Origin: a phage
Strand: one strand, 5' to 3'
DNA length: 47,489 bases
NCBI GenBank assembly: GCA_025699765.1
Contig: GCA_025699765.1_4134.1
Shown: in pieces, positions 17,231 to 21,833 of the stretch
Layout: every line of letters starts with the position of its first letter
How positions within the stretch are numbered: position 1 is the stretch's first letter
Notes under the pieces: model-generated
Database searches by the model: none
What the model saw: only the letters and a program-made list of their open reading frames with translations
What the model was told of the DNA's origin: nothing
Position numbers and translations under genes: made by a program

Positions 17231-17254
17231 GCTACGTGAGCGCCTTGATGATTA
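17231..17254 (-). terminator. Rho-independent terminator (ggcgct-acgtg-agcgcc + U-run)
   Basis: Perfect 6-bp GC stem with an A7 run on the plus strand, downstream of the 95-aa gene. Confidence 0.5.
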
Positions 17255-17539
17255 ATATTCGCCGCCGTCCTCAAGCTCTTTAACGCTTTTGCTATCCCAC
17301 GGATCTGGCTTCGTGATCTTTGCCATTTCATCGCGGATTTTTCGGTTGGTTGCACTGTCGTCTTTAACTTCGATTTCTTCGCGAGCAATTAAGCAACGCA
17401 GGCCAGGCAAATCAAGAACTGAAGCCGGAAGCGTGACCTCTTCATCTGGAAGAACTTTAGCAAAGGAACCATCTTCAAGACGGAACATCTGAAGAGCTAC
17501 ACCAACGTTTACGATAACAACAGTTTTTTCTTTAGCCAT
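17252..17539 (-). CDS. Hypothetical structural protein, 95 aa
   Basis: ORF between the major capsid gene and the connector genes, flanked by terminators on both sides. Confidence 0.5.
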   Translation of the reverse strand: MAKEKTVVIVNVGVALQMFRLEDGSFAKVLPDEEVTLPASVLDLPGLRCLIAREEIEVKDDSATNRKIRDEMAKITKPDPWDSKSVKELEDGGEY

Positions 17540-17553
17540 TTTGATTTCTCCAA

Positions 17554-17581
17554 TAAAAAAAGGGACTAACTAAGTTAGCCC
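17554..17581 (-). terminator. Terminator after the major capsid gene
   Basis: Hairpin (gggactaac/gttagccc) plus A7 on the plus strand, directly downstream of the capsid stop. Confidence 0.5.
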
Positions 17582-17589
17582 ATATAATA

Positions 17590-18549
17590 TTACACGCCAG
17601 TGATTAAGACAATAGTCATCGGGCGATAAATTGTAAGACCAGTGCACTTGGAGGTGCAAGGCACTTTAAAGTGCAAGTCTTTCGGCTGCGCTGGCAGCAT
17701 GTTAAACGCTTCCGGGATCTCGATGGACATATTCATCGGATTTTTTTCGTACACCAGCACGCCTTTAGTACCCGCACCGTCGATATCTTCAAGCTCTGCG
17801 ATAGAGTCGATTTCGATACCCGCATTCTGAGACTTGAAATAGTCCAGGTAAGACATGGTAGTTTCAGGCATACGGATCGCCAGAACCTTACGCATAGACG
17901 GCGGGATCAGGATGTTGGTAGCTCGGTGCTGGCCGCGCGTAATCGTCTCGATGGTTTCGATCGCCTGAGTCAATTCCGCTTCAGCCGTTTCCGGCTTCGG
18001 AGTTGCGGCATTCATCCACTTACCCGAGGTAATTTTGGTGATGTTCGGATGATTGAACACGGACACGATCTTGTGCGGAGCAGAACCTTTGAACACCAGG
18101 CGGTTAACCAGTTGGTCGTGTGCTAACTGACACGCGCTTGCCTTGCGAGTTGACAGTGGGCGACCAGTTGCCTGACCTGCTTTGATTTCATCAATTGAGA
18201 TCAGATACGCGTTACCCAAACGAAATACCTTGCCGAACTCAGAAGTACCCAGGGCATCAACAAGCGGCAGGTCATCTGTATAGTCAGCGATAATCTGCGC
18301 AGTACCAACCTTATCAAAGATCATATACTCAAACGTCTTGTCGGTCGGAGAAAGATCGGTAGTGACCGGGAATACTCGCAGCGCGGAGCCTACCGGGTAG
18401 TCTTCTTCATAGGACTGGCTTTTGATGCGGTGTAGTTCCTGAGCGGTCCAGATACCCATAGTTGCTGCTTCATCCTGTTTTACGCCAGCCTGGATCAGAT
18501 ACATTTCAACATTGCTTTTATCTGCTTCATCAAATTTTTTAGTAGTCAT
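17590..18549 (-). CDS. Major capsid protein (HK97 fold, lambda E-like)
   Basis: 319 aa, preceded by scaffold and decoration genes and followed by a strong terminator; composition typical of lambda-E-family capsid proteins. Confidence 0.8.
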   Translation of the reverse strand: MTTKKFDEADKSNVEMYLIQAGVKQDEAATMGIWTAQELHRIKSQSYEEDYPVGSALRVFPVTTDLSPTDKTFEYMIFDKVGTAQIIADYTDDLPLVDALGTSEFGKVFRLGNAYLISIDEIKAGQATGRPLSTRKASACQLAHDQLVNRLVFKGSAPHKIVSVFNHPNITKITSGKWMNAATPKPETAEAELTQAIETIETITRGQHRATNILIPPSMRKVLAIRMPETTMSYLDYFKSQNAGIEIDSIAELEDIDGAGTKGVLVYEKNPMNMSIEIPEAFNMLPAQPKDLHFKVPCTSKCTGLTIYRPMTIVLITGV

Positions 18550-18570
18550 GATTACTTCTCCGTAGTTAAT

Positions 18571-18599
18571 AAAAAAGCCGTGATTATGTTCACGGCTTC
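18571..18599 (-). terminator. Hairpin plus U-run between decoration and capsid genes
   Basis: agccgtga...tcacggct stem with an A6 run on the plus strand. Confidence 0.45.
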
Positions 18600-18640
18600 A
18601 ATAATAGCACTTTTTGTTAAAGCGTCAAAGTGTTTTTATG

Positions 18641-19408
18641 TTATACATCAACCTCTGGCGTTGGCACTGCTTCTACGCGATAAGCAATGGTCGCCGTCGT
18701 CTTGCTGGCATCGTTAGCCGTCCATGTGATATTGAAATCACCGACTGTTTCTCCACCAACAGGAGTCACAAGACCTGAGTCCGGATCGATGGTGGCGATA
18801 TTGGTGGCATCGATTGACCACTTACCAGTCTTGTCAGTTGCATTAGCCGGAAGAACATTCGCTACACACTGAATCGTAACATTGTTTGGCTGAGGACTTT
18901 CCTTGTTAGCGGTGATTGTAGCGGACTCAACAAGAACGACAGGTGGCGGCGGCGGTGGAACGATGAAAGCATTTTGTTTCACCTGAACCTCAATGACATA
19001 CCCGTCCTCGTGCTTAACAAAGCCGCCAGCAAAGGTCCATCCCGCGGAACCAGATCCACCAGTAACAACTCCACCAGCTCCAAACTGCAACCTTGAGAAC
19101 AAGCTGGGAGCCTCATCAAGAGAAGTAAGCGCCCATACTCGACCGTGAGAAACGACGCTGCACACTTCACCGTCGAGGATTTTACCGCTCAGGTGTTCAT
19201 ATTGGGAACGGAAGGCGATACCGTAAGGAGTCCCACCTTCATCAAGCGCCTTTACAACCTTCACTCCATCAACGATCCCGACAACCTGAACAGCCGCGCC
19301 GAACTTAATTTCACCTTGAGCAACGCAAGCGCCATCAATATTGTAGGTTGAAGTATCAGAAAGATTGCCGGGGCACGCAGGTCGCAACATTAAATTTTCG
19401 TAAGCCAT
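18641..19408 (-). CDS. Capsid decoration/cement protein paralog with Pro-rich linker and Ig-like C-terminal domain
   Basis: N-terminal ~150 aa is paralogous to the ORF at 19469-19945 (shared NIDGACV...AVQVV...VKAL...TPYG.A.RS...HGRVW). Then a PPPPPP linker and a beta-rich Ig-like domain. Start refined to MAYENL with GGAG site. Confidence 0.6.
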   Translation of the reverse strand: MAYENLMLRPACPGNLSDTSTYNIDGACVAQGEIKFGAAVQVVGIVDGVKVVKALDEGGTPYGIAFRSQYEHLSGKILDGEVCSVVSHGRVWALTSLDEAPSLFSRLQFGAGGVVTGGSGSAGWTFAGGFVKHEDGYVIEVQVKQNAFIVPPPPPPVVLVESATITANKESPQPNNVTIQCVANVLPANATDKTGKWSIDATNIATIDPDSGLVTPVGGETVGDFNITWTANDASKTTATIAYRVEAVPTPEVDV

Positions 19409-19422
19409 AATAATTTCTCCAT

Positions 19423-19454
19423 AAAAAAAGGGACTACCCAAAAGGATAGTCCCC
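19423..19454 (-). terminator. Hairpin (gggacta...tagtccc) plus U-run
   Basis: Perfect 7-bp stem with an A7 run on the plus strand, between the two decoration paralogs. Confidence 0.45.
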
Positions 19455-19468
19455 ATATTAAACTCTAA

Positions 19469-19945
19469 TTACAGTTGATGCAACTGAACTTCTACGAGCT
19501 TGATATCTTTGTATTTAGTCCAACCGCCTGCGTAGGTCCAGGTAGTTTCGATCGCGCCATCAGATTTCTCTTGACCATCAACGTCAAGTTTTACGGCGGT
19601 TCCGAAAGTTGGTGCTTTGGTGGATTTGGAAAGCATCCATACTCGGCCTGAAGTCATCACGTTGATTGCGCCGCCATTTTCGTAAACCATCTGATTTTGA
19701 TCATTAACAGTCTGCCAGTGAGATCGAATAGCTACACCGTACGGAGTGGTTCCGGTAGTAAGAGCCTTAACCAACTTATGACCATCAACCGCCTGAGCTT
19801 GAACGACTTGTACGGCAGAGCCAACAAAAACATCACCTTCGTTAACGACACAAGCGCCGTCAATGTTGTGCTTGGAAGTGTCTGCAACCATACCCGGAAG
19901 GGCGATCGCCATATCGCGCTGATAAGATGCGTTAATTTGTGCCAT
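19469..19945 (-). CDS. Capsid decoration/cement protein (short paralog)
   Basis: 158 aa; paralogous to the N-terminal domain of the next gene; immediately downstream of the scaffold gene. Confidence 0.6.
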   Translation of the reverse strand: MAQINASYQRDMAIALPGMVADTSKHNIDGACVVNEGDVFVGSAVQVVQAQAVDGHKLVKALTTGTTPYGVAIRSHWQTVNDQNQMVYENGGAINVMTSGRVWMLSKSTKAPTFGTAVKLDVDGQEKSDGAIETTWTYAGGWTKYKDIKLVEVQLHQL

Positions 19946-19956
19946 GATATTTCCCC

Positions 19957-21069
19957 TTACATTACTTTGCTTAAACGTGAATTTGGCGTAACAGGCGCGG
20001 CGTCGTTTTTCTCTTCCGGCTTACCGCCTTCGATAGAGTCGCCTTTTACTGCTTTACGCTGAATAGCCATGATATCAGAATCTTTAGCAACATCAAACAT
20101 AGCGTCTATATATGCATCAGATTTTTCGCTCACATCTTTGTTCAGCATTGCTTTGACGACTGCGACCTTAACGTCTTTGATTTCAAGGCCATCATGCTTA
20201 ACGCCTGCGGTTTCTGCCACTGCGGTAACTTCTGCACGTGCTGCGGCGTCAGCTTTCTGCTTCTCTACTTCTGCTTTTACCAGTTCAGGGATAGAATCAA
20301 CCTTAACCTTAAGAGCGTCGCGTTCAGCTTCGAAGCCATCAGCTTTCCCCTGAATGGCGGCAATCTGTGCGGTTAATTTTTCGATATGGTTAGCAACGTC
20401 TTCGGTTACTTCCACATCAACGGAGTCGATCTTGATTTTTTTCATTTGCTTGTCCTCGTTAGTTAATTGAACGTTATTATCATACGGAAATTCCTGTTCA
20501 GCATCAAGGTTTAATTTAGCAATTCCAGCACGACCCTTGAAAACTAGTGCGATATGGTTGACCTTGATATTAGTCTGTACCGCGTCAAATTTCACCCAGC
20601 CTTCCGGCGGCGCTTCATCCTGCTTCATATCCTCTTCGAAGATATATTCTCCAGTCTCGTTTGAACCCCAGCCTGGCTTATCAATATCTACCGACGTGTA
20701 CCCTACAGATAATTCCCCGGCCTCCTTCGCTTTAGCTTTGCTGATCGCGTAGTCGCTGTAAATACTCAAAGGAACTTCAACGCCAACCCCTGAAGCAATA
20801 CCAGCGCCAGCGCACGATCCCACAACAACATCCTTAGCATTTTGGGGAGTTACCGTTACGTGACCTACTGTAATCGGCTTGCCTGCAAAACTTTGCAATG
20901 AATCTTGCTTGAAAACTTCTGACGCCGGACGGAACTCAACGCGATCGCCGTGTGGCGTTTTGTAAACCTGAGCGCCGATTCGCGCCACGATTGGGCGATC
21001 AACCAAAAAACCATTATCATCAAAGTGTGCCTTGATTTTTACAGAATCGAATCTTTGCTTTGCCTTCAT
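19957..21069 (-). CDS. Scaffolding protein (possibly with N-terminal protease-like domain)
   Basis: C-terminal half is Ala/Glu/Lys-rich coiled coil, typical of scaffolds; sits between the head-morphogenesis and decoration genes. Start refined to MKAKQRF with GGAG site. Confidence 0.55.
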   Translation of the reverse strand: MKAKQRFDSVKIKAHFDDNGFLVDRPIVARIGAQVYKTPHGDRVEFRPASEVFKQDSLQSFAGKPITVGHVTVTPQNAKDVVVGSCAGAGIASGVGVEVPLSIYSDYAISKAKAKEAGELSVGYTSVDIDKPGWGSNETGEYIFEEDMKQDEAPPEGWVKFDAVQTNIKVNHIALVFKGRAGIAKLNLDAEQEFPYDNNVQLTNEDKQMKKIKIDSVDVEVTEDVANHIEKLTAQIAAIQGKADGFEAERDALKVKVDSIPELVKAEVEKQKADAAARAEVTAVAETAGVKHDGLEIKDVKVAVVKAMLNKDVSEKSDAYIDAMFDVAKDSDIMAIQRKAVKGDSIEGGKPEEKNDAAPVTPNSRLSKVM

Positions 21070-21071
21070 TT

Positions 21072-21833
21072 TTAATCTCCTGTGGAAAAGTCTGGAACAG
21101 CCCAACAACGGCAGTTATATTCTTCACCAGGGAATACGTGATCAGAATCTACCGCTATGCGCTTACCTTCCCATCTTACATGTTTTTCACGTTCGCGTAA
21201 ATCCATCACCCCGCGCCAGAAATAGTAAGAGACACCAGCATCTTTTATGCGTTGGCGCATTAGTCTACTGTTCCATGTTCCGACAATTCCAGACGCTCTA
21301 TTTTTGGCCCAATTACGGTAAATACCAAATCGCTCCTTAGCAAGCTCAACAACAAAATCCTTGCTTTTACCCTGACCGGATGCTGCACGAAGTTTATCAG
21401 TGAAATCAGTAACCATGTTGGCGGCAAATTTCCTGATAGAAGTAGTCACCTGAGATCGCCATAGATTATATTGTCCTGAGTACCAGCTTTCGGCAGCGGT
21501 AGGACCAATCAGGGCAAGTAGCATTACGGCCTGATTCTTCTTCCCTCCAGAGTTGCGAGCGATACGCAACCACTGCTTAGAGTTGAATTTATAGATCGTG
21601 AGCGCAACTGAGGATAGGGAACCGATAATCGGCGCGATGAGCGATTCAACGTAATCAAGCAATGACCTTTCTGCCTGGTCTATCTCTTCGTCGGTAGCAT
21701 CAAATTTCATCGGCTTTAATTCGTCACGCATTTTTTCAGTTAGTTTGGCTGCTACATCCTGTAAGGAGCGCGACATTGCGCGCTCGCTCATTTCAGGATG
21801 GCGCCACTGAGTAGCAACGCCATTAATTTTCAT
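21072..21833 (-). CDS. Head morphogenesis protein (SPP1 gp7 / Mu F-like)
   Basis: Directly downstream of the portal gene with overlapping stop/start; size and position match the minor head protein family. Confidence 0.6.
   Translation of the reverse strand: MKINGVATQWRHPEMSERAMSRSLQDVAAKLTEKMRDELKPMKFDATDEEIDQAERSLLDYVESLIAPIIGSLSSVALTIYKFNSKQWLRIARNSGGKKNQAVMLLALIGPTAAESWYSGQYNLWRSQVTTSIRKFAANMVTDFTDKLRAASGQGKSKDFVVELAKERFGIYRNWAKNRASGIVGTWNSRLMRQRIKDAGVSYYFWRGVMDLREREKHVRWEGKRIAVDSDHVFPGEEYNCRCWAVPDFSTGD

Follow-up and report, generated by a model that had tools for sequence, protein, structure and literature searches.

The Locus and Its Genes

The window (the whole stretch of DNA analysed here, 47,489 nucleotides) carries a head-gene module in which the order of transcription is portal (PF06381), a Mu-F-like head morphogenesis gene, a DUF2213 protease/scaffold gene, two adjacent cement genes and a PF09950 major capsid gene. 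The two cement genes and the elements that lie between and after them are, in the direction of transcription:

19469 to 19945, minus strand: cement/decoration protein, T1 gp49 orthologue, 158 aa (open reading frame, PF22758, phrog_1989, PDB)
19454 to 19429, with the U run extending to 19423, minus strand: intrinsic-terminator-like hairpin GGGGACUAUCC-UUUU-GGGUAGUCCCU, the top-listed terminator-like site
19417 to 19420, minus strand: ribosome-binding site GGAG, 8 nt before the gp48 ATG; an equivalent site is annotated in T1
18641 to 19408, minus strand: Ig-domain cement protein, T1 gp48 orthologue, 255 aa (open reading frame, Pfam and PDB match)
18959 to 19408, minus strand: part of gp48 (residues 1-150) that forms the cement core and is paralogous to gp49 (BLASTP; PF22758 at residues 8-143)
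18941 to 18958, minus strand: PPPPPP linker, gp48 residues 151-156 (codons read from the sequence)
18689 to 18928, minus strand: Big_2 Ig-like domain, gp48 residues 161-240 (PF02368, E=6.8e-9, 36 bits)
18628 to 18601, minus strand: sigma-70-type promoter TTGACG-N16-(TG)TATTAT, the best promoter-like match (10/12, extended -10)
18599 to 18574, minus strand: second terminator-like hairpin, 2 nt from the end of the promoter and ahead of the major capsid gene; annotated in T1
17590 to 18549, minus strand: major capsid protein, T1 gp47 orthologue, 319 aa (PF09950, E=1.9e-62; phrog_264; T1 annotation)

By nucleotide similarity, the source phage is assigned to Tunavirus (T1-like, Drexlerviridae). A megablast search with positions 17500-21200 returned 57 phage records with at least 80% query coverage, and the top nucleotide identities (92-93%) were to Shigella phage S2_02, Eco_BIFF, SH6, ADB-2 and Escherichia phage T1, all of which are members of Tunavirus within the Drexlerviridae. 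The succession of protease, gp49, gp48 and major capsid protein is common to the window and the T1 record. In that record (AY216660.1), CPTT1_029 (Orf 49) is designated a "capsid decoration protein" and CPTT1_030 (Orf 48) an "IgG-domain-containing decoration protein", rho-independent terminators are annotated after each decoration gene, and a promoter is annotated before the capsid gene; the T1-like record SA30RD bears the same regulatory annotation. In several other phage records the label "putative zonula occludens toxin" stands on the gp49 orthologue and "scaffolding protein / SbcC-like" on that of gp48; both labels look like propagated mis-annotations of cement proteins.

The gp49-type gene starts at ATG 19945, after an 11-nt gap that follows the stop codon of the 370-aa DUF2213 protease/scaffold gene. 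Its product matches the Phage_cement family PF22758 with 101.3 bits (E=6.8e-29), above the curated, whole-protein gathering cut-off of 27 bits, and phrog_1989 with E=3.3e-64. It also gives a full-length match (residues 1-158) to the PDB entries 9kmg_a, 9kzj and 9kmh, described as "Decoration protein | cement protein II" (E=1e-97), and it is 93.7% identical to T1 CPTT1_029 by tblastn.

The gp48-type gene ends with the final base of its stop codon at 18641. Its product scores 62.9 bits against PF22758 (cut-off 27), is likewise a strong match to phrog_1989, exceeds the gathering cut-off of PF02368 Big_2 (22.8 bits) and matches phrog_215, "structural protein with Ig domain". Over its full length (residues 1-255) it matches PDB 9kzj_H, "BIG2 domain-containing protein" (E=8e-161), and it also matches 9kmh_ak, "Decoration protein gp29" (E=5e-157); a residue count on the PDB-match alignment gives about 94% identity to T1 gp48. 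The start of gp48 is ATG 19408 (MAYENL). A mechanically called 271-aa open reading frame from ATG 19456 was rejected as the gene because it lacks a ribosome-binding site, starts a little upstream of the hairpin and runs through it, and disagrees with the 255-aa T1 and PDB proteins.

Beyond the capsid gene, a 95-aa gene to which no function is assigned (phrog_2716; T1 Orf 46) stands alone at 17252-17539 on the minus strand, flanked by terminator-like hairpins at 17581 to 17563 and 17246 to 17226. Its T1 counterpart, Orf 46, does not figure in the protein models built for the T1 virion.

Paralogy of the Two Cement Proteins

The preliminary description of this DNA had proposed that the two adjacent genes share a conserved core and arose by duplication. 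Both lie on the minus strand within 18641-19945, both products belong to PF22758, and BLASTP aligns them over 143 aa with 40% identical and 63% positive residues (E=2e-29), so the similarity of the cores survives alignment. In the alignment, gp48-type paralogues lack about five N-terminal residues of the gp49 arm MAQIxASY. The further proposal that the downstream copy adds a PPPPPP linker and an Ig-like domain is borne out by the hexaproline read at residues 151-156 and by the Big_2 match at residues 161-240, which lies above threshold.

The gene pair was already known: it is annotated in GenBank, and the capsid architecture of its orthologues has been solved twice. Because annotation and structures exist for orthologues that are about 94% identical, the pair has little discovery value in itself; its use is as a positive control for the inference, from sequence only, that the genes were duplicated and that their products decorate the capsid, one of them with an Ig domain on display.

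Capsid Architecture Known from T1 and Relatives

Structures of T1-type cement proteins are held in PDB entries 9kzj, 9kmg and 9kmh. The cryo-EM study of T1 describes a T=7 shell of 415 copies of the gp47 capsid protein. Two kinds of trimer sit on its three-fold and quasi-three-fold axes, 80 that contain gp49 only and 60 that combine one gp48 subunit with two of gp49 (PMC11945409; Chen et al., Viruses 2025). The resulting copy numbers per T1 head are 360 for gp49 and 60 for gp48, a ratio of 6:1, which is assumed for the present phage by orthology with the approximately 94% identical T1 proteins. PMC13033339 cites a second, independent T1-like structure, solved for phage FCWL1 (Cai et al., Structure 2025).

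In T1, gp49 and gp48 residues 2-153 adopt a beta-tulip fold and have been built into the density; gp49 has its N-terminal end buried in the shell, and gp48 only rests on the outer surface (PMC11945409). Residues 154-255 of gp48 correspond to a weak protruding density that was modelled with AlphaFold3, and the T1 authors suggest that this protrusion may help early adsorption (PMC11945409). The map was icosahedrally averaged (PMC11945409), and gp48 may therefore fill its sites only in part.

Both proteins have thus been seen in T1 virions by cryo-EM, and the preliminary reading of capsid decoration with an outward Ig domain agrees with the full-length T1 gp49 and gp48 matches and with the gp48 protrusion in the T1 map. 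What that description lacked is that gp48 and gp49, by analogy with T1, would co-assemble in 1:2 heterotrimers and would not form independent decorations. The explanation favoured for the locus as a whole, to which we assign a probability of about 0.9, is that the pair corresponds to gp49 and gp48 of a T1-like siphophage, paralogous beta-tulip cements that clamp the three-fold and quasi-three-fold junctions of a T=7 HK97-fold shell. According to this model, gp49 would be the bulk component, present as 80 homotrimers and as two subunits of each of 60 additional trimers. The remaining subunit of those 60 heterotrimers would be gp48, with its Big_2 domain held off the shell by the rigid hexaproline linker. 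The lattice position of gp48 is probably fixed by protein contacts, and its expression level would need only to prevent an excess of gp48.

The Terminator Between gp49 and gp48

A weak terminator had been proposed to lie between the two genes. A hairpin with a U-tract is indeed present, and it is the word "weak" that does not stand. The hairpin has an 11-bp stem with six G-C pairs, a 4-nt loop and seven U residues, which agrees with the sequence criteria for an intrinsic terminator, and the 60-nt spacer has a minimum free energy of -19.4 kcal/mol (z=-3.09), with none of 200 shuffled sequences as stable. These features mark the intergenic hairpin as canonical and strong-looking for an intrinsic terminator.

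The hairpin ends (19429) just 20 nt short of the gp48 ATG (19408), and this interval is taken up by the U-tract and the ribosome-binding site. A promoter scan of the minus strand inside the gp49 gene gave no promoter-like match. Since the gap is filled and the scan gave no match, gp48 would be translated only from RNA that reads through the hairpin. The layout suggests a mechanism in which the terminator closes a portal-to-gp49 transcription unit, gp48 lies directly behind it with no promoter of its own and would be made from read-through RNA only, which fits its approximately six-fold lower copy number, and the major capsid gene would restart transcription from its own conserved sigma-70 promoter. 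From the layout together with the virion stoichiometry, it is plausible that read-through sets the 6:1 ratio.

A literature search on T1 transcripts and terminators returned in-silico descriptions only, with no transcript data; measurements of transcript or protein amounts turned up neither for this phage nor for T1. The TLS re-annotation paper (PMC11447400) records an earlier description of the T1 late region as terminator-flanked modules with RpoD promoters.

The capsid-gene promoter, TTGACG-N16-TGCTATTAT, is conserved from Tunavirinae to Webervirus, and its hexamers are kept in six Drexlerviridae lineages; it adjoins the second hairpin in Tunavirinae and Tempevirinae. A transcription start about 7 nt past the -10 element (near 18594) would lie within the 5' arm of that hairpin's stem. 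With the start inside the stem, transcripts arriving from upstream could terminate there, and those from the capsid gene's own promoter would be unable to form the complete hairpin.

The Terminator and the Adjacent Slot in Drexlerviridae

A hairpin with a U-tract lies 3' of the first cement gene in T1, TLS, PHB07, MatMar, Rogue1 and Jurek, and the stem sequences of these six Drexlerviridae lineages are mutually unrelated. A scripted survey covered 80 IMG/VR loci with a gene for a gp49 relative, 79 of them evaluable for the hairpin. A terminator-like hairpin no more than about 20 nt from the first cement stop codon was found in 78 of these 79 loci, with at least 12 different stems. The lone miss (L066) is an artefact of the loop over stem lengths in the script; the Rogue1 sequence, which has the same 481-aa collagen-repeat gene as L066, folds into a hairpin. 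The terminator is family-wide as well as strong-looking, and not weak, as initially described.

The gene that follows the hairpin differs among the 80 loci:

22 loci: cement paralogue with one Ig domain
1 locus: cement paralogue with two Ig domains
25 loci: bare cement paralogue
20 loci: capsid gene directly (Webervirus)
3 loci: collagen-repeat protein
5 loci: something else
4 loci: not scorable

Where a second cement gene is present in the surveyed loci, the gap before it measures 31-62 nt and consists of the terminator and the ribosome-binding site only. Because the hairpin is also found where there is no second paralogue (the 20 Webervirus loci), it would primarily mark the end of the portal-to-gp49 unit and would not be tuned to gp48.

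In Rogunavirinae, the slot (L003:3065-4510 in Rogue1; also L062, L066 and L067) holds a 481-aa collagen triple-helix protein (PF01391, E=3e-27). This protein was considered as a cement relative and rejected, as it contains collagen repeats only and no cement core; it may represent a different kind of head fibre. A separate observation concerns the TLS major head protein (L005:3539-4528), whose annotated ATG lies inside the U-tract directly after the hairpin. This start is probably five codons too early, because the PHB07 relative starts 15 nt downstream, after a GAGGG ribosome-binding site.

A broader proposal, which we regard as speculative and rather doubtful in its full form, is that the slot between the terminator and the capsid promoter is a promoter-less, low-expression cassette site across Drexlerviridae. 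It would receive lineage-specific surface modules (a bare, one-Big_2 or two-Big_2 paralogue, a collagen-repeat protein, or nothing); leakage through the terminator would set the dose of about one to six relative to gp49 that the 60 heterotrimer sites need, and selection for a diverse surface would drive exchange of the Ig module among phages that are otherwise nearly identical.

Evolution of the Pair and of the Ig Domain

Among 13 Tunavirus phages, mean pairwise identity is 98.6% for the capsid protein, 95.6% for gp49, 92.4% for the gp48 core and 81.5% for the gp48 Big_2 domain, where the minimum is 57.5%. Mean identity drops with exposure, and within the head module Big_2 changes fastest in this set. 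The PPPPPP motif at residue 151 is invariant in all 13 orthologues.

The closest overall relative of the window is Shigella phage Shfl1 (L012), at 95.1% identity over the first 25 kb. Identity to Shfl1 is 97-100% in the regions that flank gp48, 83% in the gp48 core and 67-70% in the Ig part, and it returns to 99% at 18600, exactly at the end of the gp48 gene. The gp48 allele is closer to those of T1 and S2_02, whose type it shares, and makes the window a recombinational mosaic relative to Shfl1, with a mosaic boundary in 18601-19200. Such a pattern of mosaicism and divergence is expected of an exposed, tethered domain and is not by itself proof of an adhesin. The Shfl1 gp48 (L012:3538-4338, 266 aa) contains an exact 12-residue tandem duplication in its Ig domain (KPDNATNKTGVW twice), which accounts for its 11 extra residues with respect to the 255-aa form.

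In the protein database, proteins that combine Phage_cement and Big_2 occur in forms of 243-271 aa, two-Ig forms measure 336-346 aa, and Ig-less forms exist as well. Across genera, the cores of the second-slot paralogues are 29-35% identical to one another and 28-42% identical to the gp49 type, values that are uninformative on the age of the duplication and on whether the second-slot paralogues group together, as they would after one ancient duplication. Motifs are shared in an alignment of the Ig parts from T1, PHB07 and MatMar, a hint that the Ig fusion may have been single and old.

Alternative Readings

It could be argued that the resemblance between the two genes is due to chance or to a mis-called open reading frame, with one real product only. 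The sole point in its favour is the ambiguous upstream ATG at 19456, against which stand the alignment at E=2e-29, the passing of curated Pfam thresholds and the fact that both orthologues have been modelled in cryo-EM maps; we consider this reading extremely improbable, and treat it as ruled out by the BLASTP, Pfam and PDB matches. A more serious possibility, to which we grant an appreciable chance but one clearly short of even, is that site-specific protein contacts alone fix the gp49:gp48 ratio, and that the hairpin is only a terminator or 3' stabiliser of the head-assembly transcript. The presence of T1 gp48 in one defined class of 60 sites, and not in a random subset of sites (PMC11945409), speaks for contacts, as does the terminator's occurrence at the same place in lineages whose next gene is the capsid gene and not a second paralogue. 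However, the gap before gp48 is promoter-less, and if the hairpin terminates at all it must lower the gp48 mRNA; moreover, both mechanisms are compatible with each other.

The function of the Ig domain allows a different emphasis, namely that gp48 is mainly a putative adhesin, its Ig domain binding host glycans or mucus as proposed for T4 Hoc and T5 pb10, and that its cement role is secondary. In agreement with this idea, the domain in T1 is exposed and flexibly tethered, and the T1 authors propose a role in early adsorption (PMC11945409); likewise, no part of the head module evolves faster than Big_2 among the 13 Tunavirus phages, and the Ig domain has been swapped by recombination relative to Shfl1. 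Relaxed constraint on an exposed domain would, however, also speed its change. In addition, 25 of the 80 surveyed loci have an Ig-less second paralogue and 20 have no second paralogue, and since so many relatives lack one or the other, the Ig domain is dispensable in the family. By analogy with the Hoc and pb10 proposals, a primarily adhesive gp48 is conceivable, and on this balance we hold it to be rather unlikely. The ligand, if any, of the exposed and fast-evolving Ig domain bears on the engineering of T1-like phages for display or altered gut retention.

Comparison with Known Systems

The closest known counterparts are gp49 and gp48 of T1 (PDB 9kzj) and of FCWL1 (9kmg, 9kmh), which share with the window the order protease, gp49, terminator, gp48, promoter plus hairpin, and capsid gene. 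The T1 proteins agree in their lengths of 158 and 255 aa, in the PPPPPP linker and in about 94% of their amino acids, and differ by point substitutions only.

At the level of protein families, both window proteins are sequence members of PF22758, to which Pseudomonas phage E217 gp24 and Pam3 gp6 belong; this family and PF23982 (Vibrio phage XM1 gp53) comprise trimeric cement proteins at the three-fold positions of the capsid. E217, Pam3 and XM1 are myophages; each of them is not known to have more than a single cement gene, or an Ig extension on it. Lambda gpD and TW1 gp56 are similarly trimeric beta-tulip decorations at three-fold or quasi-three-fold sites (PMC11945409). In the Pfam search neither window protein matched the lambda gpD family at E<=0.1, and the likeness to gpD is, according to the literature, one of fold only (PMC11945409). 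In contrast to the T1-type pair, gpD forms homotrimers only, carries no Ig domain and is seated on the surface without an arm inserted in the shell (PMC11945409).

An analogy has also been drawn with the herpesvirus triplex (Tri1 plus two Tri2), a 1:2 beta-tulip heterotrimer at three-fold junctions (PMC11945409). In the herpesviruses all of the trimers are heterotrimers, whereas in T1 this is true of 60 of the 140, and no sequence relation is detectable.

As regards the Ig-like extension, T4 Hoc and T5 pb10 combine a capsid-anchoring module with one or more outward Ig-like domains for which weak adhesion has been proposed. Hoc and pb10 bind as monomers at hexamer centres, and neither is known to be paralogous to a cement protein. 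T5 and phi-crAss001 have been cited as examples of capsid-displayed Ig-like adhesion (PMC11945409). Unlike Hoc and pb10, the T1-type protein carries its Ig domain on one subunit of a cement trimer.
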